This document shows positions 11,113-19,493 of a stretch of DNA of 25,653 bases, in pieces. Both the position numbers and the translations under genes were made by a program. The notes under the pieces were generated by a model. That model saw only the letters and a list, made by a program, of their open reading frames with translations. It did not search any database and was not told the DNA's origin. Source of the DNA: an uncultured Candidatus Saccharibacteria bacterium (lineage in GTDB: Bacteria > Patescibacteriota > Minisyncoccia > Minisyncoccales > CG1-02-41-26); contig CAYOFM010000001.1 of assembly GCA_964403365.1 (NCBI GenBank), positions 1-25,653 on the forward strand, given 5' to 3'. Position 1 is the stretch's first letter, and each line of letters begins with the position of its first letter.

Positions 11113-12585
11113 ATGATAGAGAAAAAAGATTTAAAAGTTTGTATGTTTCTACAGAGAAAAGCCGCCTTATGGGGGCATGCTTTGGCTTTGGAGTTAAAAG
11201 AACTAGGGGTGGCCCAGTTTAGTGCTTATGCTTCGCCTTTTAGGTCTGCTGAGTTTTTAAGAGCCCAGCATGATATTGCATATCAACCATTGTTAGTAGA
11301 TGAAGAAATAATAGCAAATTTTAAAGATGAAAAGATTGATTTTACTTTTTTAAAAGATATGGAAGAAAAATATGGCATGCCTAATCTTTGGCACTATATT
11401 TTTATGGATAGATATTTAATTATGAGTAAGGCAAAAACTTCTTACGAACCTTCTTACAATTACCATGAGATGCTTCAGATATTGCAACTTCGCCTTAGGG
11501 CAATTGTAAAAATGTTAGAAGAGACGAAACCTGATGTGATGATTTTTTCATCTATTGCTACAATGCCTTCTTTGTTATGCTATCAAATATCAAAAAAAAT
11601 GGGCATAAAAACAATGCAGGTTGCTTCTACTAGAGTAGGTAAAAGAATTGGCGTTATGGAGGGCTTGGAAGAATATACATCTGTCCTGTCAGTTTTTAAA
11701 AGCATACAAGCAGGTCAAAGAGAGCGTAAATATGAGGCAGAGGCTTTAGGTTTTTTAAAAGAGTTTAGGCAGGAGAAGAAAGCAGCCTACACAGTATTTC
11801 AACTATCACATTCTAAGTTTTTACCAAAAAGGGTTTATAAGGCATTGGTTCATATAATTAGACGTACATTTAGGCACTCTACTACAACAAGAAAAAACGA
11901 CTACATGGAAGAGGATAATGTAAACTATTTCAGAAAGCGTATTACCAAAAAGATTAATACTTAGAGGGGATATGATAAATTATTTAAAAAGCCAGATTTT
12001 AGTAAAAACTATGTATTTTTTCCATTGCATGTTGAGCCAGAAGCAGCCACTCTTACCTTAGCTATTTATAATATCAATCAGATAAATTTAATTCGTAATA
12101 TTGCCCTTTCTCTCCCTATAGATTATAAGCTTTATGTTAAAGAACATCCTTGTATGATAAATACAAGGAAACGCTCGTATTACAAGAAGATATTAAGAGT
12201 ACCGAATGTAGAGTTAATAGATTGCAAAACACCATCTGTTGATTTAATTAAAAACGCTAAACTGATTACTACTATTACCGGAACAGTTGGCTGGGAGGCC
12301 ACACTGCTTGGCAAACCAGTCATTACCTTTGGCAATGCTTTTTATAATATCTTTTCGTTTGTTAAGCGTTGCGAAAACATAGAAAAATTGCCCTCTTTAA
12401 TAAAGGATAGTTTGCATCATTTTAACTATAATGAAAAGGAATTAGTTGATTACTTAAGTGCTTTGTTTGAAGAATCAGTAGATATAGACTTGTATAAAAT
12501 ATGGATAACAGGCACATCTTGGAAGCTTATAAAAGAAGAGGGAATGTTTAAAGAGTTGGCAAGATTCATCTACGACAGGATATAG
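11113..12585 (+). pseudogene. KpsS/Capsule_synth-like glycosyltransferase interrupted by a single in-frame TAG (11962-11964)
   Basis: ORFs 11113-11964 and 12025-12585 share a frame: KKINT*RGYDKLFKKPDFSKNYVFFPLHVEPE, then YVKEHP and TGTVGWEATLLGKPVITFG. Confidence 0.85.
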
Positions 12586-12592
12586 AAGTAAA

Positions 12593-13846
12593 CTATAGGT
12601 AACGGAGTAGGATAAAGTTAACAATACCATTTAATAAATTATGGATAGTTATAGCAATGATCAATCCTAATAAGCCAAAGAAATAAAGAGATAAAAATAA
12701 AATTGATATTTTAATTACAGCCATTGAGATATTTTGCTTGTATAATATCTTTGTTCTTCTTTTAGCAGTAAAGGCAACACCAGGGATTAAGCCAATACCA
12801 CCTAAAAGATTAAGGGAATAAATACGTGAGTAAAGGATAGCCCCAGTATAAGTAGGAAAAAATATTTTAAAGATAAGTGGGCAGAATGCAATATAAAGAG
12901 CGACCATACTAGTTAGTAAAATAGCCCAAGGAACTGTTTTTGCGAAAGCAGTTTTTTTTATTTCTTGGGCACTTCTAGTAGATAGCTTAGGCAAAGCCAA
13001 TTGGCACATACTTTTAGTAACAGATTTTAAGTTGTCTGGCAGTATTGTAGCAAACGAATAAATAGCTAATTGAACAGCACCTACATAATGAAAGATAAGG
13101 ATTTTATCAATCTGCATTGCAACAAGATTTAGCACACCCATTAAACTTAAATGTTTGCCAAAAACAAGTGATGATTTATCAACACTATTTTCTTGTGATG
13201 GAATAGGGTCTTGTTTAAAAGTGATTACATAGAATAAAATACTTAAAATAGATCTTGATGAAAAATAGACAAGTACTAAATAAATAGTATTATTTGTTAG
13301 GATGATTACACTAGCAGTAATTAGGGCTGCTAAAAATCCTTTTGCTAAGTCTAATTTAGCTTTTAAAGAAAAGTTTTTTTTGCCTTCTAAATAACTAGTA
13401 TAAAGAGGGAAAGAATTAATAATAGGGGAGAGTAGGCCAGCGATTAAAAAAGATATAGATAAAGTAACATCTTGTTTAACCCAATAATAAACAGCTAGAG
13501 AGAGCCCTGCTAAAAGTGCCAGCATGCCCCAGCGAAGTCGTGCTTTAAGGGCTTGCTTAACTGTGCCGGCAAAGTTTCTGGCTACTGCTTGAGTAACAGC
13601 ACTTTTCATACCAGATAAAGAGAAGATGGCCAATAAAGAGGCAATAGAAAGAATAAATTTATACTGACCATAAACATCTTGAGGCACAAATCTTGCCCAA
13701 ATCATACCCATTGCTAAAGCAATCAATAAGGTTCCAAAGCGTGCCAAACTTAGCCAAAAACTACCTTTGGCGATATAAACATTATCGGTTTTGGTGTATT
13801 TCTCTGTTTTCCTTAAAAGATTGTAGACCTTTCCTTTAATTGGCAT
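12593..13846 (-). CDS. Wzx-type polysaccharide flippase (MOP family)
   Basis: Many TM segments; RFVPQDVYGQYKFILSIASL, QIDKILIFHYVGAVQLAIYSFA. Confidence 0.85.
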   Translation of the reverse strand: MPIKGKVYNLLRKTEKYTKTDNVYIAKGSFWLSLARFGTLLIALAMGMIWARFVPQDVYGQYKFILSIASLLAIFSLSGMKSAVTQAVARNFAGTVKQALKARLRWGMLALLAGLSLAVYYWVKQDVTLSISFLIAGLLSPIINSFPLYTSYLEGKKNFSLKAKLDLAKGFLAALITASVIILTNNTIYLVLVYFSSRSILSILFYVITFKQDPIPSQENSVDKSSLVFGKHLSLMGVLNLVAMQIDKILIFHYVGAVQLAIYSFATILPDNLKSVTKSMCQLALPKLSTRSAQEIKKTAFAKTVPWAILLTSMVALYIAFCPLIFKIFFPTYTGAILYSRIYSLNLLGGIGLIPGVAFTAKRRTKILYKQNISMAVIKISILFLSLYFFGLLGLIIAITIHNLLNGIVNFILLRYL

Positions 13847-15558
13847 TAGATTAGATTATTATTTTGTAAATATTCAATAACTTGTTCGGCACATTTCTCA
13901 ATGTTTTCATCTGTGTTGCTTGATGTATCTAAAATAATTTCTGCGTTTTCTGGTTTTTCATAAGGATCAGAAACACCAGTAAAGTTTTTGATTTCTCCTG
14001 ATCTGGCTTTAGCGTAAAGCCCTTTTGCATCACGCTTTTCACAAACCTTAAGCGGGCATTTGCAATATACTTCTATAAAGTTTTCTACCTTATCTCTAAC
14101 ACCATCTCTTTGATGTTTATACGGAGAAATAAAAGAAGCGAGTACTCCTACTCCGTTTTTAGCTAGCATTTTAGCTACAAAACCAATCCTTTTAATATTT
14201 TCATCCCTATCTTCTTTGGAAAAGCCAAGATCTTTGGTTAATGTTTGGCGAACTATATCTCCATCTAATCTTTCAATATGTTGATTACTTTGTTTAAGTT
14301 TCTCTGAAACTTTGTCAGCCACTGTTGTTTTACCGCTACCTGATAAACCAGTGAACCATAAAATAAATCCTTTTTTATTATTAGAGTTTTTATGCATATT
14401 ATATTTATTATCTACTAATGGATTGTGGCTGTTAGCTAAAAAGTTATAAATCTCAGGTCTCATAACATAAGAGGGGATTGGCGTTTTATTTAAAATAGCT
14501 TGCCTAATTTTAGTACCACTAAATGATTCTTGATTTTTTGAGCAGTCTGGACAATCGTTTTCAAAAACGTGAGAGTTACAAGTATGACACCAAACTACAT
14601 TTTTAAACTTCAATATCTCGACACCGATTTCATCTGGCTTAAATTGATTAAAAATCTCTTGGGCATCAAATGGACCATAGAAATCTCCCACACCAGCATG
14701 GTCTCTACCCACAATAAAGTGAGTGCAACCAAAGTTTTTTCTGATTAAAGCATGCAGTACTGCTTCTCTTGGTCCAGCATACCTCATTTTTAAAGGCAAG
14801 ATACCCAACACCACCTTATTCTCAGGAAAAAAGTTTTTAATCAAGAGTTGGTAAGATGCTATGATAAATTCATCCTTAAAATCAGTTAGTTTTTTTTCAC
14901 CAATCACTGGCTGGATAAATAATCCGTCAGTTTGTTTTAGGGCCTGTTTCTGTAAAAACTCGTGTCCTTGGTGAGGCACATTTCTAGTTTGAAAAGCTGC
15001 AACCGTGTCCCAACCATTTTTTTTAAATAACCCTCTGGTTTCCTTTGGTGTTAAATCATAATCAGAAAAAGGTGTTTGGTCATGGATAAGCCAGGTATCT
15101 CCACCAATTAAATAATCTTTCATTTTAAAAACATTGGCTACTCCTGGGTGGTTTTGGTCGGTAGTACCAAATACATTTTTGGCAAAGCTATTTTTATCAT
15201 AACTAAATATCTCAAAGTTTTCTAGAATAGCGATTGGTTGGCTATCGTCAGATACAAGTAACACCTGTTTTTCATTTTTTATTTTCTGTTTTTCTGTTTC
15301 AGAAATATCTAAAACAATTGGCACAGACCAAACAACCCCGTTAGCCAAGCGCATATCTTTAACCACAGAACTAAAGTCACTTTTTTTCAAGAAACCAGTA
15401 AGAGGGGAATAGACCCCGTGGGCAATGTTTCTTACATCAACTGTTCTTTCTTTATCTAAAACCAGGACCTTTAATTGGTCCTTTTGCGCTAAGATATTCT
15501 GTTTTTTATCTTCATCAAGAACTCTATCAATAAGTTCTCCGCCGTGTGGTTTAATCAT
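13846..15558 (-). CDS. sat-cysC: Bifunctional sulfate adenylyltransferase / APS kinase (Sat-CysC, PAPS synthase)
   Basis: Start MIKPHGGEL at 15558 (not 15606); FQTRNVPHQGHE, MRYAGPREA, VGRDHAGVG; kinase half WFTGLSGSGKTT, LDGDIVR, RDAKGLY. Confidence 0.95.
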   Translation of the reverse strand: MIKPHGGELIDRVLDEDKKQNILAQKDQLKVLVLDKERTVDVRNIAHGVYSPLTGFLKKSDFSSVVKDMRLANGVVWSVPIVLDISETEKQKIKNEKQVLLVSDDSQPIAILENFEIFSYDKNSFAKNVFGTTDQNHPGVANVFKMKDYLIGGDTWLIHDQTPFSDYDLTPKETRGLFKKNGWDTVAAFQTRNVPHQGHEFLQKQALKQTDGLFIQPVIGEKKLTDFKDEFIIASYQLLIKNFFPENKVVLGILPLKMRYAGPREAVLHALIRKNFGCTHFIVGRDHAGVGDFYGPFDAQEIFNQFKPDEIGVEILKFKNVVWCHTCNSHVFENDCPDCSKNQESFSGTKIRQAILNKTPIPSYVMRPEIYNFLANSHNPLVDNKYNMHKNSNNKKGFILWFTGLSGSGKTTVADKVSEKLKQSNQHIERLDGDIVRQTLTKDLGFSKEDRDENIKRIGFVAKMLAKNGVGVLASFISPYKHQRDGVRDKVENFIEVYCKCPLKVCEKRDAKGLYAKARSGEIKNFTGVSDPYEKPENAEIILDTSSNTDENIEKCAEQVIEYLQNNNLI

Positions 15559-15572
15559 ATATGTTATGTGGG

Positions 15573-15753
15573 GTGTAGGGGGGAGGGCATTTGCCGAAGG
15601 GGGCACTGCGCAGACGCACTCACTGAGAATAATAAACTATTATTGAACTTAGGAAGTGCGTCGAGCAAAGCCACATCCGTAACTGTATTTTAATTTATTT
15701 CTTTAGGATAGTGGCGGGTCCCCTGAGGCAAATGACCCGAACCTCTCTAACGC
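15573..15753 (+). other. GC-rich Y-shaped structured element filling the frr-sat spacer (ncRNA or ssDNA/MITE-like)
   Basis: About 30-bp interrupted closing stem plus two internal hairpins, with several G.T pairs on the + strand. Confidence 0.6.
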
Positions 15754-15755
15754 GT

Positions 15756-16313
15756 CTATCCTTTAATCTCAACCTCTTTATTCTTAACCATTTCTTCCAT
15801 TTTGTCTCTATACTCACGAACCATTTCATCTAACTTATCTTTACCCTTAAACTTATCATCTTCTCTTATCTCTCCTTTAGTAAACCCGTCCTGTACTGAT
15901 TTCCACATCTTATCCCGTAAATGCCTAACAACTTGAAAAGCCTCTTCTTTCTTTTTATTTAACACGCGTACTAAATTAGCCCTGCTTTCTTCTGTTAGTG
16001 ACGGTGAAGTAAGATAAACTTTTTCTCCATCTATTCTTACTGATAAGCCAAGACCTGCTTTTTCAATAGCTCCAACAGCACCCTCTATATAACTCTTATC
16101 CCACAGTTGAATTAGTAGCTCTTTAGATGAGCCAGAGGTAATCGCCCCTAATTGCTTCATGGGCAAAATAGAGCCAAAACAATCTACCTTTATATCTTCT
16201 ACTAAGGCTGGAGATAACCGCCCACTACGCAGTTTCATCATCTCATCTTTAAACTCTTCCTGTACTTTCTCTAACTCTGGTTTTAAATTGTCTAAAATTG
16301 ATTGATAACTCAT
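15756..16313 (-). CDS. frr: Ribosome recycling factor
   Basis: KLRSGRLSPALVEDIKVDCFG, PSLTEESR, GEIREDD. Confidence 0.95.
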   Translation of the reverse strand: MSYQSILDNLKPELEKVQEEFKDEMMKLRSGRLSPALVEDIKVDCFGSILPMKQLGAITSGSSKELLIQLWDKSYIEGAVGAIEKAGLGLSVRIDGEKVYLTSPSLTEESRANLVRVLNKKKEEAFQVVRHLRDKMWKSVQDGFTKGEIREDDKFKGKDKLDEMVREYRDKMEEMVKNKEVEIKG

Positions 16314-17032
16314 ATATTTAACATTAAGTTTTCTAACACTAACCTTTTATTTATATTAGTTGTATTTACAAGATATTGCAACTTTTGAGCCAGCTTTATT
16401 TTCTCTACCACTCCCCTACTCTCTTCTATATTAGCTAGGAGTATCTGTCTCAAATAACTTATTAAATTTTCAAAAAAGTTTTGGACTGCTAAACCATTTT
16501 CTTTTGATATCTTTTCTGCAAAAACAAATTTGCTTTCTAAATCCCCAGCTATTATCCCCTGCATTTTTTGGGCTATGTTTTTGTCTAATGCCTTTGCCTT
16601 TGTGTTATAAAACTTTAAAACAGCACAACGGGATATAATAGTAGGTAAAAGTGTTTTATACTTATCAGTAATTAAAATAAATAAAGCATTGCTCTTTGGT
16701 TCTTCTAAGGTTTTTAAAAAACAATTCTGAGCCAGCTTATTCATTGCTTCCACTTTATTAATAATAACTATCTTCCTATCACTAAATTGTGGCTTAAAAC
16801 TTAAATCTTTTTGTAACTCCCTAATTTGATCTATTTGTATCTCTTTACCTAATGGCTCTATTTCTATTAAATCCTGCCCGCACATTTCCCCACTATGGAC
16901 TTGTTTAATAAAATCTAAAGCTATTTGTTTTTTGCCAACCCCTTTTGGTCCATTAAAAATAATAGCCTGTGGCACTCTATTATTAACCACAGAATTTTTC
17001 AAAAATTCAACTTGTTGTCGATGAGTAGTCAT
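16310..17032 (-). CDS. holB: DNA polymerase III subunit delta'
   Basis: FNGPKGVGK, IQIDQIREL, AQNCFLKTLEEP, LLPTIISRC; ATGA overlap with frr. Confidence 0.9.
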   Translation of the reverse strand: MTTHRQQVEFLKNSVVNNRVPQAIIFNGPKGVGKKQIALDFIKQVHSGEMCGQDLIEIEPLGKEIQIDQIRELQKDLSFKPQFSDRKIVIINKVEAMNKLAQNCFLKTLEEPKSNALFILITDKYKTLLPTIISRCAVLKFYNTKAKALDKNIAQKMQGIIAGDLESKFVFAEKISKENGLAVQNFFENLISYLRQILLANIEESRGVVEKIKLAQKLQYLVNTTNINKRLVLENLMLNI

Positions 17033-18040
17033 TTACTTCTTCGTCATCACACTTTTCTTATAAACATCTAAATTCTCCAATACAATACCTGTACCTTTAG
17101 CTACGCAAAATAAAGGATTTTCAGCTACAAAACATGGTACCCCTGTTTGCCTAGCAATCAATTGATCTAAATTTCTTAATAGGGCTCCTCCTCCAGCTAA
17201 AATCATCCCTTTATTCATAATATCTGCAGAAAGCTCTGGCGGAGTATCACGAAGTACCTGTTTTACTCCTTCTACTATCTCCATACAAGTAGGATAAATA
17301 GCTCGAGCAATTTCATTAGCAGTAATTTTAATGTTACGAGGCAAGCCAAGGGCTAAGTCTCTGCCCCTTATCTCTAACTGAGCATCTTTTTTCTCAGCAA
17401 AGGCCTTACCAATCTTTATTTTAATCTCTTCAGCTGATTGGCTTCCAATAGCTAAATTATGTTCTTTTTTAATATGCTCAGAAATTCTATCGTCCATTTT
17501 GTCTCCAGCTATTCTAACTGAGCTAGCAGTAACAATCCCGCCCAAAGAAACCACAGCAATTTCTGAAGTACCTCCACCAATATCAATAATCATATTACCC
17601 TCGCAAGAATGAATCGGAATGCCAGCCCCAATAGCTGCTAATATTGGCTCTTTAGCCACGTAAGCTGCTCTGGCTCCAGCAGCTCTGGCTGCTTCAATCA
17701 CAGCTCTTTTCTCAGTAGAGGTAGAACCAACTGGCACAGAAATCACTACTTCTGGTTTAAAAAAACCAAACCTGCCTTGAGCAGTTTTAATAAAGTGCCT
17801 AATCATAGCCTGAGTTACTTTGTAATCAGCAATTACTCCATCTTTCATTGGCCTGTAAACTACAATAGAATCAGGTGTACGGCCAATCATTAATTTAGCT
17901 TCATTACCCACTGCTAGTATGGTATTCTCCTGTTTACTAACCGCTACCACAGAAGGCTCTTGCAAAACAATCCCTTTTTTAGGGACAAAAACAAGACAAT
18001 TACAAGTTCCTAAATCAATAGCTATTTTTGTAACAAACAT
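17033..18040 (-). CDS. mreB: Rod shape-determining protein MreB
   Basis: IAIDLGT, EPSVVA, RPMKDGVIADY, IDIGGGTSEIA, LAGGGALLR. Confidence 0.97.
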   Translation of the reverse strand: MFVTKIAIDLGTCNCLVFVPKKGIVLQEPSVVAVSKQENTILAVGNEAKLMIGRTPDSIVVYRPMKDGVIADYKVTQAMIRHFIKTAQGRFGFFKPEVVISVPVGSTSTEKRAVIEAARAAGARAAYVAKEPILAAIGAGIPIHSCEGNMIIDIGGGTSEIAVVSLGGIVTASSVRIAGDKMDDRISEHIKKEHNLAIGSQSAEEIKIKIGKAFAEKKDAQLEIRGRDLALGLPRNIKITANEIARAIYPTCMEIVEGVKQVLRDTPPELSADIMNKGMILAGGGALLRNLDQLIARQTGVPCFVAENPLFCVAKGTGIVLENLDVYKKSVMTKK

Positions 18041-18068
18041 AAATAAAGTTTATAAATTTTGATTGTAA

Positions 18069-18223
18069 GCAGGTACGAGGGAGTCCTCTTGTATCGGCGT
18101 CTCGCAGGCGAATGAGCATGGTCCCCAAGGTAATCCGAGGGGTCATTCGCCGAGAGCCGAGCAGCGACTAACGGCTGGGTTAGTCGACTGCGTACGATAC
18201 AAGAGGACTACCCGAGTGCCTGC
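18069..18223 (+). other. GC-rich Y-shaped structured element in the murA-mreB spacer (ncRNA or MITE-like)
   Basis: Closing stem with a perfect 15-bp segment AGTCCTCTTGTATCG/CGATACAAGAGGACT, plus two internal hairpins. Confidence 0.7.
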
Positions 18224-18230
18224 CATCCGA

Positions 18231-19493
18231 CTAAACCCTCTTAATATCCGCACCAAGTGATTGGAGCCTCTCCTCTATTTTCTCATACCCTCTATCTATC
18301 TGATAAATATTATTTATCGTAGTAGTTCCCTCAGCTATTAAGCCAGCTACAATCAAGCTAGCTCCAGCCCTAATATCCCACGATTCAATTGATACACCAT
18401 GCAATTTATTTGGACCAAGCACAAACGCTCGATGAGGATCTACTATCTCTATATCAGCTCCCATTTTACGCAACTCTTGCACATATTGCAAACGATTTTC
18501 ATAAAGTGGATCATGTATTAAACTTTTACCTTTAATTTGAGTTAATAATGGCACCATTAAAGGCATTAAGTCTGTAGGGAATCCTGGGTGTGGTAAAGCC
18601 TGAATACGACAAGGTGTCAGCTCTTCCCCTGCCTCTATTTCAATATCACTTTCCCCTATCTTAATATTATTGATACCCATCTGGCTTAGAGTAGCCACAA
18701 ACATAGATAAATCATCTGGGTTAATATTGTTTACTTTTACTTTCCCCCCAGTGACAATACCGGCAATTAAAAATGTACCTGCTTCAATATAGTCGCCTAC
18801 TATTGTATGCTCTGTGCCTTTTAGCTCTTTTACTCCCTCAATTTCTAAACTGTGAGAAGATATCCATTTAATTTTAGCTCCCATACTATTTAACATTTTA
18901 ACTAAATCCTGCACATGTGGCTCTACGGCTGCTGTTTCAATAATTGTTTTACCCTCTGCTAAAACCCCTGCCATAATTACATTCTCAGTAGCAGTTACGC
19001 TAAACTCTGGTAAAACTATTTTTTTGCCAACAAGCTTATCTGCATTAAAATGATAAAATTCATCTTCTATTTCCACACTTACTCCCAACTCTTTTAAAGC
19101 ATCTAAATGAGTAGTAATCGGTCTTAAGCCAATTTTATCTCCCCCAGGCCTAGATATCTTAAAGTTTTTAAACCTAGGCAAAAGCGCTCCAATAAATAAT
19201 ACCGAAGTACGAGTTTTAGAAAACTTTTCAAAATCTATTTTAGATGGATCAACAGAATCTACTGCTTTTATCTTTACCCCTCTCTCTCCTACCCACTCTA
19301 TTTCTGCCCCCATATCTTTTAAAACCTCAATCATATTCTTTATATCCTCTACTAGTGGTAAATTACTAATTAAACATTCTTCTTTTGTAAGCAAAACAGC
19401 GGCAATGATTGCCGCAGCTGCGTTTTTGGACCCGCGTATTTCTACTTCTCCCTCTAATTTATTTCCACCGTTAATAACAAAATGTTTAGACAT
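18231..19493 (-). CDS. murA: UDP-N-acetylglucosamine 1-carboxyvinyltransferase
   Basis: GSKNAA, PGGDKIGLRP, SVTATEN, DYIEAGT, PHPGFPTDL, DIRAGA, IDRGYE. Confidence 0.97.
   Translation of the reverse strand: MSKHFVINGGNKLEGEVEIRGSKNAAAAIIAAVLLTKEECLISNLPLVEDIKNMIEVLKDMGAEIEWVGERGVKIKAVDSVDPSKIDFEKFSKTRTSVLFIGALLPRFKNFKISRPGGDKIGLRPITTHLDALKELGVSVEIEDEFYHFNADKLVGKKIVLPEFSVTATENVIMAGVLAEGKTIIETAAVEPHVQDLVKMLNSMGAKIKWISSHSLEIEGVKELKGTEHTIVGDYIEAGTFLIAGIVTGGKVKVNNINPDDLSMFVATLSQMGINNIKIGESDIEIEAGEELTPCRIQALPHPGFPTDLMPLMVPLLTQIKGKSLIHDPLYENRLQYVQELRKMGADIEIVDPHRAFVLGPNKLHGVSIESWDIRAGASLIVAGLIAEGTTTINNIYQIDRGYEKIEERLQSLGADIKRV

Follow-up and report, generated by a model that had tools for sequence, protein, structure and literature searches.

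The 25,653 nt window analysed here is a single contig (CAYOFM010000001.1, contig C1) of an uncultured Candidatus Saccharibacteria bacterium (assembly GCA_964403365.1), whose genome is of the Patescibacteria/candidate phyla radiation (CPR) type and comprises 632 kb in 80 contigs (35% GC, 90% complete). Two intergenic spacers of the window contain structured elements, here termed E1 (15573..15752, + strand) and E2 (18067..18227, + strand), which are members of one family of dispersed elements built around a three-way junction. The elements encode no protein and are 150–180 nt long, with roughly 155 nt being typical. No family in Rfam 15 matches it, and no publication describing it was found. Compensatory changes keep its fold intact, gain, loss and replacement of copies distinguish sister species, and the strand that is maintained runs antisense to the genes of the host. 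The best explanation, which we hold with about even confidence, is a non-autonomous mobile structured repeat whose conserved junction, bulge and loop would be recognised by a partner.

That E1 and E2 belong to one dispersed and undescribed class had been suggested in a preliminary description of the window made from sequence alone, and both parts of the suggestion hold. The two elements match one covariance model, and a genome-wide search finds four more copies of the E2 type in the same genome as well as further copies in the order and the phylum. A scan of the window against Rfam 15 gave zero matches at gathering score, a permissive scan of positions 15400–18400 returned only snoRNA-like noise (E ≥1), and the loci of three relatives also gave no match. 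No tRNA or tmRNA genes were found, nor was any published description of the family in CPR/Patescibacteria in the literature searched. BLAST of E1 and E2 against 60 relatives, a collection that holds no congener, produced no match.

E2 is the intact copy. The whole of its spacer (18041-18230, +) folds into a Y shape at -96.5 kcal/mol (z -8.1), and the element is a full match to the covariance model, scoring 174.8 bits with an earlier model (R1) and 150.4 bits with a model built from 35 copies in about 30 genomes (R2). The outermost helix, P1, is formed by a 5′ arm at 18069..18076 (GCAGGTAC) and positions 18216-18223; in the alignment of copies its sequence is unrelated from one copy to another, yet it is paired in each. 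Next come a tandem GA (18077..18078) opposite GA at 18214-18215, as read from the sequence, and a GGG/CCC step (18079-18081 with 18211-18213) beside a bulged A at 18210, all of which are conserved model positions (GAgG ... a-CCgAg). The 5′ arm of the long stem P2 (18082..18098) pairs with 18195-18209, so that the 3′ arms of P2 and P1 together occupy 18195..18223. Two arms are enclosed by this stem. P3 (18100..18156) has the base UCUCG-C-AGGCG ... CGCC-GAGAG, above which a stem of 9 bp and a distal hairpin follow, the latter with a second loop of the GA/GA type; P3 includes the conserved 7-nt bulge GCAUGGU at 18116..18122. P4 (18161..18191) carries a conserved loop, (G/C)GCUGG, at 18173-18178. 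All of these features lie on the + strand. The other four E2-type copies in the source genome are in the galT/tpiA spacer (contig C19), the rplB/rpsS spacer (C11), upstream of mraZ (C67) and in the lysS/serS spacer (C63). The five share 70–87% identity with compensatory changes in every helix, and RNAalifold of these copies gave 61 pairs, 30 of which showed compensatory changes.

E1 is a decayed or divergent member of the family. Its whole spacer (15561-15755, +) also gives a Y-shaped fold (-86 kcal/mol, z -7.9), with an arm P3 at 15607..15667 (+; CGCAG-ACGCACUC ... GAGUGCGU-CGAG, with an AT-rich tip) and an arm P4 at 15670..15716 (+; GCCACAUCC ... GGAUAGUGGC, with a 27-nt AT-rich loop). A global alignment reveals that E1 retains P1, the GA/GA, the GGG/CCC step with its bulged A, P2, the CGCAG ... 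CGAG at the base of P3, P4 and the junction. It is classed as decayed or divergent because it lacks both the GCAUGGU bulge and the CGCUGG loop; distal P3 and the P4 loop are AT-rich, and there are many G.U pairs. The sequencing runs that match this DNA are all metagenomic DNA runs from salt lakes, with no RNA run among them. In contigs from these metagenomes a T>C change at 15649 and a 1-nt deletion at 15702 were seen, both of which fall in the AT-rich distal portions of E1; the stems are unaltered in the contigs compared.

The kinship of E1 and E2 rests on the covariance-model match and on an ordered motif pattern, not on shared words. R2, which was built mostly from copies in other genomes, gives E1 43.2 bits (E ~2e-9), against 19 bits for the reverse strand of E2 and at most 17 for other sites in the window. 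With R1, run with search filters off, E1 had scored 32.1 bits; the rebuild thus took E1 from 32 to 43 bits and lowered the E2 reverse strand from 30 bits to 19. The fast-filtered genome-wide search with the model misses E1, and the count of decayed copies in the genome is therefore a lower bound. BLAST and a sequence-only nhmmer profile established no link between E1 and the family. An ordered four-motif pattern searched on both strands (1.26 Mb) was found at 8 sites, these being the five E2 copies, E1 and two chance matches in coding sequences. The stem features that had been noted as common to the two elements occupy the same model positions: the GA/GA, the GGG/CCC step with its bulged A and the CG[G/C]AG ... 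CGAG at the base of P3 are in the same structural places in both. The shared words exist as described but fail as evidence of homology. The word GGC[A/G]AATGACCC lies in the 3′ arm of P2 in E1 and, as its reverse complement, in the 3′ arm of P3 in E2; since these helices are non-equivalent and an 11/12 match to the shared 12-mer arises in 5/60 shuffles, it is given no weight. The shuffle result upholds the caution, voiced at the outset, that the 12-mer does not prove homology.

E1 and E2 are also alike in strand, position and orientation. Both fold better on the + strand, as had been proposed, E1 by more than 20 kcal/mol (-83 on + vs -62 on -, with 6 vs 2 G.U pairs) and E2 at -96 on + vs -88 on -. 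In the sense orientation of the genes, both elements start just past the stop codon of the upstream gene, again as originally noted. The E1 model match ends at 15752, 3 nt from the stop codon of frr (15756-15758), and the outer stem of E2 ends at 18223, with the stop codon of a murA-family gene (18231-18233, - strand) 7 nt on. Both spacers are GC-rich islands within a genome of 35% GC.

The family extends well beyond this genome. A search with R1 found it in 35/151 genomes of the order, at 1–8 copies and with E-values down to 1e-26, whilst R2, applied to a phylum-wide sample, found it in 13/151 genomes, at up to 13 copies per genome. Fold statistics for the family as a whole were taken from 85 copies in about 45 genomes. 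Standard pairs fill 90.6% of pair cells, compared with 55% in column shuffles and about 40% with slid partners, and changes on both sides were seen in 61/63 pairs. In helix P2 all 19 pairs are changed on both sides, with 92–94% of cells paired. The conserved ends of the family, AAGCGAGG ... CCGAGCG on the folded strand, form a tandem G.A loop; the base of P3, UCG[G/C]AGGC ... GCCGAGA, forms another loop of the G.A type, and distal P3 often holds a third tandem G.A. The junction leaves only 0–2 nt unpaired per strand. Among paralogues within one genome the core (P3, P4 and inner P2) can be near-identical, outer P2 and P1 differ by compensated transitions, and similarity ends exactly at the ends of P1.

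The bulge of P3 is strongly conserved, with column counts across the 85 copies of G 76, C 78, G 80, G 82 and U 78. Its first base and the third base of the P4 loop combine as G:C in 72 copies, C:G in 3 and otherwise in 1. A fourth copy with an altered bulge-loop combination is L069, and the altered copies come from three genomes. These counts suggest a tertiary contact of two base pairs between the GC of the bulge and the GC of the P4 loop; support for it is only moderate because the four copies may share ancestry and because a one-base insertion also fits.

Variation in the family includes additional modules. One subfamily (L098 and L099, on contig C11 of genome G042 at about 115.2 and 138.3 kb) has an extra hairpin of ~55 nt between P3 and P4 that is identical in two copies 23 kb apart, and another copy (L100, contig C3 of G116, about 57.7 kb) has an insertion within P4. 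Back-to-back inverted copies and adjacent partial copies also occur. Three copies (L036 in G085, L049 in G087 and L109 in G173) share a TACGAAT-repeat motif (CATAACCCTACGAATTACGAAT...) in the 5′ flank, taken in the orientation of the folded strand, where it separates the element from the start codon of the divergent gene; this motif may be an additional small module travelling with the element.

Several features distinguish the folded strand from its complement. It is the more stable of the two in 80/85 copies, by a mean of -8.7 kcal/mol with RNA parameters and -3.8 kcal/mol with DNA parameters. At paired positions G.U outnumbers A.C by 169 to 62, and amongst mismatches G.A/A.G outnumbers C.U/U.C by 258 to 27. 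Unpaired residues are 65% purine, and the apical loops are GAA, GAAG, AAA or UAA. In the closed genome G065 the folded strand is the C- and A-enriched strand of its replichore, on which mutation pressure alone would be expected to favour A.C; the excess of G.U is therefore no mutational artefact. Wobble pairs are nevertheless rare, at about 3.5% of pairs, which is unusual for RNA and is compatible with hairpin correction at the DNA level or with a need for both strands to pair.

The position and polarity of the copies are similarly biased. The folded strand is antisense to the genes in 45/57 copies lying between co-directional genes (79%); the spacers of convergent gene pairs hold another 13 copies, and those of divergent pairs 5. 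Sixty copies face a convergent gene, and in 38 of them the 3′ end of the element falls within -10 to +11 nt of the stop codon of that gene; the start of the divergent gene is usually 20–80 nt from the element. The genes themselves are varied: 160 flanking proteins fall into 134 clusters of diverse housekeeping functions, with no recurrent enzyme or neighbour. A bias relative to the replichore, which the preliminary description had put forward for checking, is complete in G065 (639,534 bp). Its nine copies are on the + strand at 107–246 kb and on the - strand at 467–539 kb, and the minimum of the cumulative GC skew, which marks the origin near 290 kb, falls inside the 246–467 kb interval in which orientation switches. 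To the right of the origin 81–100% of genes are co-oriented with the skew. In every case (9/9) the folded strand is on the leading-strand template and antisense to the genes directly beside it. Of these copies, six are clustered in 75 kb (466–540 kb), a region with 92–100% gene co-orientation that probably holds ribosomal-protein operons. In the source genome, the + strand GC skew is negative over the whole profiled stretch of the window (~15.6–19.5 kb), where genes are on the - strand.

Turnover was revealed by the comparison of orthologous spacers, another check that had been proposed, which found filled, empty and replaced sites. The genomes compared were G173 and the closed G065, which are congeneric and share about 90% amino-acid identity in the flanks; six G173 copies were included. 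Three of the sites filled in G173 are empty in G065. At one of them the G065 spacer reads TAA-AAAT-ATG, and the insertion in G173 lies directly after the TAA. The galT/tpiA spacer is filled in both genomes (L046 in G173; 488664-488870 in G065) and its flanking genes are >90% identical, yet the P2, P3 and P4 sequences are entirely different; judging from these sequences, the resident copy appears to have been replaced rather than to have diverged. The G065 copy in this spacer has a 48-nt insert in its P4 loop. Two other G173 sites have a different sequence at the G065 counterpart. At two loci, L106 and L113 (G173; G065 about 110.2 kb, 74.1 kb), the element provides the last 4–6 codons and the stop of the upstream gene (e.g. 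...CGC TCG GTA ATA TAA), and insertion therefore rewrites protein C-termini. A closing stem derived from the target, or from a duplicated gene end, was considered and rejected: there are no flanking duplicates, and the stems of paralogues differ by compensated transitions and are therefore homologous rather than target-derived. A search of four metagenome DNA runs for empty-site joints in the window gave none that could be trusted, given low depth, sides of <30 nt and matches to other organisms.

Taken together, the architecture is a copy-specific P1, a tandem G.A loop, a long and variable P2, and then a tight three-way junction bearing arms P3 and P4. P3 contributes a conserved purine-rich base and the GCAUGGU bulge, with which the CGCUGG loop of P4 probably pairs. 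On the explanation we favour, the elements would be non-autonomous mobile repeats, comparable to REPINs or structured MITEs (miniature inverted-repeat transposable elements), which could spread and overwrite one another via a single-stranded form of the folded strand, whether RNA or single-stranded DNA (ssDNA). A trans-acting factor would recognise the conserved junction, bulge and loop. Copies may persist past stop codons in packed operons because insertions there would do least harm, and would mostly be kept in the orientation that leaves the tightly folding strand out of the mRNA.

A number of observations weigh against such a mobile repeat. No enzyme or mechanism was found for its mobilisation: the RAYT-like genes of the genome belong to other repeats, and neither TnpB nor reverse transcriptase was found in this 90% complete genome. 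There is no sign of target-site duplication, either in the flanking direct repeats, which average 6.5 nt compared with 6.1 nt in shuffles, or in the filled/empty site pairs of G173 and G065. No larger parent element stands behind the partial model matches, which are copies with an extra hairpin and not the ends of insertion sequences (IS). Polarity is not absolute: 12 copies are in the sense orientation, and opposite copies lie 4–15 kb apart within one gene orientation in G313 and G042, which contradicts a polarity strictly determined by replication. Nor is the leading-strand template the strand that usually becomes single-stranded at the fork, which makes the ssDNA version less likely. Old copies (70–87% identity within the genome) are still near-perfectly paired, which would not be expected of passive MITE copies, and this points to selection in place and a cellular function. 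Finally, a specific tertiary pair between bulge and loop, together with purine-rich conserved loops, would be less usual at the ends of a transposon than in a functional RNA.

The most serious alternative is a family of genes for structured non-coding RNAs (ncRNAs), antisense or trans-acting, whose dispersal would be secondary. On the sequence evidence this is possible, though clearly less probable than a mobile repeat. Such an RNA might bind a protein or tRNA/ribosome, regulate the 3′ end of the convergent gene as a cis-antisense RNA, or act as a ribozyme. Every strand-specific signal is antisense, namely the excess of G.U over A.C, the three tandem G.A loops, the purine-rich unpaired residues and the A-rich apical loops. 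Conservation of the unpaired motifs GCAUGGU and CGCUGG extends throughout the phylum, the bulge-loop pair covaries, and diverged paralogues hold their pairing through compensated transitions. Upstream of E2 the + strand also carries TTGTAA-17 nt-TATAAA (18028-18056). However, hexamers resembling a -10 box occur in ≤5% of 84 copies at any upstream position and none is enriched at a fixed distance, in a test that used a sigma-70-type motif, from which CPR promoters could differ. In many copies only 0–10 nt separate the element from the start codon of the divergent gene, too little for a promoter, and no U-tract terminator follows the element. Nor does an ncRNA gene readily account for the patchy distribution, with copy numbers from 0 to 13, for positions that are not conserved and sites that are empty in a congener, or for the rarity of wobble pairs.

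A more specific form of the RNA explanation, which we consider unlikely, is a functional RNA class with a tertiary fold, comprising a junction locked by the bulge-loop pair as well as three tandem G.A loops, that is made antisense and is either catalytic or binds a universal partner. Catalysis could in that event mean self-processing or self-mobilisation, and the partner could be tRNA 3′ ends, via GGU-ACC pairing. Such pairing, between the conserved GGU in the bulge and the ACC at the tRNA 3′ end, would resemble that in L15 of RNase P or in the T-box. Three other RNA-level identities were tried and rejected. A small ORF or ribosome decoy (GGAGG-N9-AUG on the folded strand) fails, given that the G/C position and the AUG vary and that the reading frame is not conserved; a hammerhead-like core fails on the junction, with its 0–2 unpaired nt per strand; and a K-turn fails for want of a 3-nt bulge beside the G.A pairs.

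The opposite strand has also to be considered. The preliminary description had raised a REP-like role in tuning operon mRNA, in which the sense strand would act within the transcript, either as a post-stop hairpin of the REP/BIME kind stabilising the upstream cistron or as a processing site for RNase III that separates cistrons. Copies do lie directly past stop codons in operons (e.g. rplB-rpsS, L3-L4 and groES-groEL), and the 79% of copies in co-directional gene pairs noted above would be co-transcribed in that orientation. The near-perfect P1+P2 helix of 25–30 bp would presumably suit RNase III on either strand, and a need for pairing on both strands would fit the rarity of wobble pairs. The strand-specific features, though, are all antisense, and a sense role is accordingly disfavoured and considered unlikely. 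The sense version is less stable in 80/85 copies, with E1 losing 21 kcal/mol; its G.U to A.C ratio would be 62 to 169, and its conserved internal loops would be U.C/C.U. Mutational skew should give an excess of A.C over G.U, the opposite of what is observed, and the conserved unpaired motifs and the tertiary pair would be unexplained in a stabiliser.

Mobilisation as non-autonomous hairpins by an HUH Y1 transposase, either a RAYT or a TnpA of the IS200/IS605 type, in the manner of REPINs, had been the first of the mechanisms proposed. It is largely refuted and can be given little credence. In its favour, the source genome has three genes for RAYT-like Y1_Tnp proteins, each about 250 aa long and carrying HUH motifs (C62:2978-3718, L149; C30:1977-2768, L150; C9:4779-5537, L151), Y1_Tnp is somewhat commoner across the order in genomes that bear the element (24/35) than in the others (54/116), and the elements are strand-polar relative to replication. 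However, inspection of the RAYT-like genes, where a check for ends similar to those of the element had been proposed, revealed that each is flanked by a short palindrome family of its own (of the ACTAGGGCAGCCCTAGT type at C62, of the ATATTCGATATCGGATATCGAATAT type at C30 and GGAAGGAGTTCAACTCCTTCC at C9) and that the three-way-junction element flanks none of the three. By the REPtron rule there is one tnpA-REP per REP family (PMC6006769). Moreover, 11 of the 35 bearers are without a Y1_Tnp match, including G085 and G078 with five and four copies of the element respectively, and the family consensus, which begins with AAGCGAGG, is without a GT[AG]G foot; the GTAG at 15576-15579 in E1 is not a family feature. 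The template of the lagging strand is where Y1 transposases work (PMC6006769), but the element has its folded strand on the leading-strand template, the active strand for this comparison being the one indicated by the strand-specific pairing and purine counts. With palindromes of their own at the RAYT-like genes, bearers that are free of Y1_Tnp and the opposite strand, the RAYT and IS200/IS605 hypothesis is therefore unsupported.

The palindromes themselves form arrays elsewhere in the genome. Those of the ACTAGGGCAGCCCTAGT type make very stable nested hairpins (C43:3684-3783, C4:12267-12375, C16:5489-5605, C9:2235-2332 and both flanks of C62:2978-3718), and a second family (TTCGATATCGGATATCGAA) is found at C34:1387-1502 and around C30:1977-2768. 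Three REPtron-like sets are thus present in a minimal genome of 0.63 Mb.

Least credible of all is that E1 and E2 are two unrelated hairpin clusters alike by chance: BLAST and the sequence-only profile do leave E1 unconnected, the 12-mer is at chance level and E1 lacks the two most conserved unpaired motifs, but no other hairpin of the window, the E2 reverse strand included, comes near its model score, that score rose in the rebuild as the reverse strand dropped, the ordered motif pattern is nearly unique to the six elements, and strand, position and orientation are shared.

All of the genes surrounding both elements are on the - strand according to the ORF list and Pfam. E1 occupies the spacer between frr and sat. 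The latter is a sat-cysC fusion encoding ATP sulfurylase and adenosine phosphosulfate (APS) kinase (13846..15558, -) and starts 14 nt from the 5′ end of E1; frr (15756..16313, -), found in the ORF list, encodes ribosome recycling factor (Pfam RRF, 2e-37). A holB-like gene (16310-17032, -) and mreB (17033..18040, -; Pfam MreB_Mbl, 1e-134) follow, the start of mreB being 26 nt from the 5′ end of E2, which occupies the spacer between mreB and the murA-family enolpyruvyl transferase gene (18231..19493, -; Pfam EPSP_synthase family, 5e-91). Genes turn from the + to the - strand at 12585-12593, where convergent operons are separated by an 8-nt gap.

These findings mean that some of the smallest and tightest bacterial genomes keep up to 13 copies of a 155-nt non-coding element in spacers of a few nucleotides between essential genes, and that its fold is conserved phylum-wide. 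As selfish DNA, the element would be a structured repeat that fits none of the usual enzymes, has an unusual leading-strand-template polarity and alters gene 3′ ends. As an RNA, it would represent a new and widespread structured RNA class, and should activity at the RNA level prove true, phylum-wide dispersal in minimal-genome symbionts would be owed to RNA activity and not to a protein transposase. In either case the covariance model can annotate such spacers and prevent their confusion with riboswitches, 6S-like RNAs or terminators in CPR genomes.

Amongst known systems, the REP/REPIN-RAYT repeats are similar in being extragenic, multi-copy hairpins past stop codons that form subfamilies within a genome, keep their pairing and are strand-polar. 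They differ in size and form, REPs being 20–40-nt hairpins or doublets, whereas the element measures 150–180 nt and combines a conserved three-way junction with a candidate tertiary pair. The element also lacks both a GT[AG]G foot and a RAYT partner of its own, occurs in genomes free of Y1_Tnp and has its folded strand on the leading-strand template.

ERIC/IRU, the Correia elements of Neisseria (CREE), pneumococcal BOX and RUP, RPE of Rickettsia and bcr1 of Bacillus are MITE-like repeats of 100–170 nt with long hairpins, dispersed between genes and variably present between relatives. Such families are limited to a genus or family and drift neutrally, and some overlap the ends of genes. The element is like them in size, dispersal and variable presence, and two of its copies likewise supply C-terminal codons and a stop. 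Unlike them, it is found phylum-wide, keeps 90% of its pairs, has conserved unpaired motifs and a strong bias of strand and orientation, and shows neither a target-site duplication nor a parent IS.

The attC sites of integrons are folded single-strand sites at the 3′ ends of genes, conserved in structure more than in sequence, with extrahelical bases, branched tips in long sites and strand-specific recombination. The element is likewise folded, lies at gene 3′ ends and keeps its structure more than its sequence; however, it is flanked by core housekeeping genes rather than cassettes, and its junction core is conserved in sequence. An attC identity was rejected, as the ends of the family alignment have no R/L boxes (GTTRRRY).

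PATEs, which derive from IS200/IS605, share with the element the absence of classical terminal inverted repeats and of target duplication, recognition by structure over sequence and an orientation tied to the replichore. Yet the polarity of the element is opposite to that of IS608 and ISDra2 (PMC6006769), the genome is without TnpB, and the element is one whole fold rather than hairpins of a left and a right end. Orphan ncRNA motifs, discovered by similar reasoning as GC-rich spacers of AT-rich genomes (PMC8632094, PMC11109978), offer a last comparison. The element stands apart from these in being multi-copy and non-syntenic, in its turnover among congeners, in its antisense orientation to neighbouring genes and in lacking a promoter, but like them it has no known function and is a GC-rich island with strong covariation and conserved loops.

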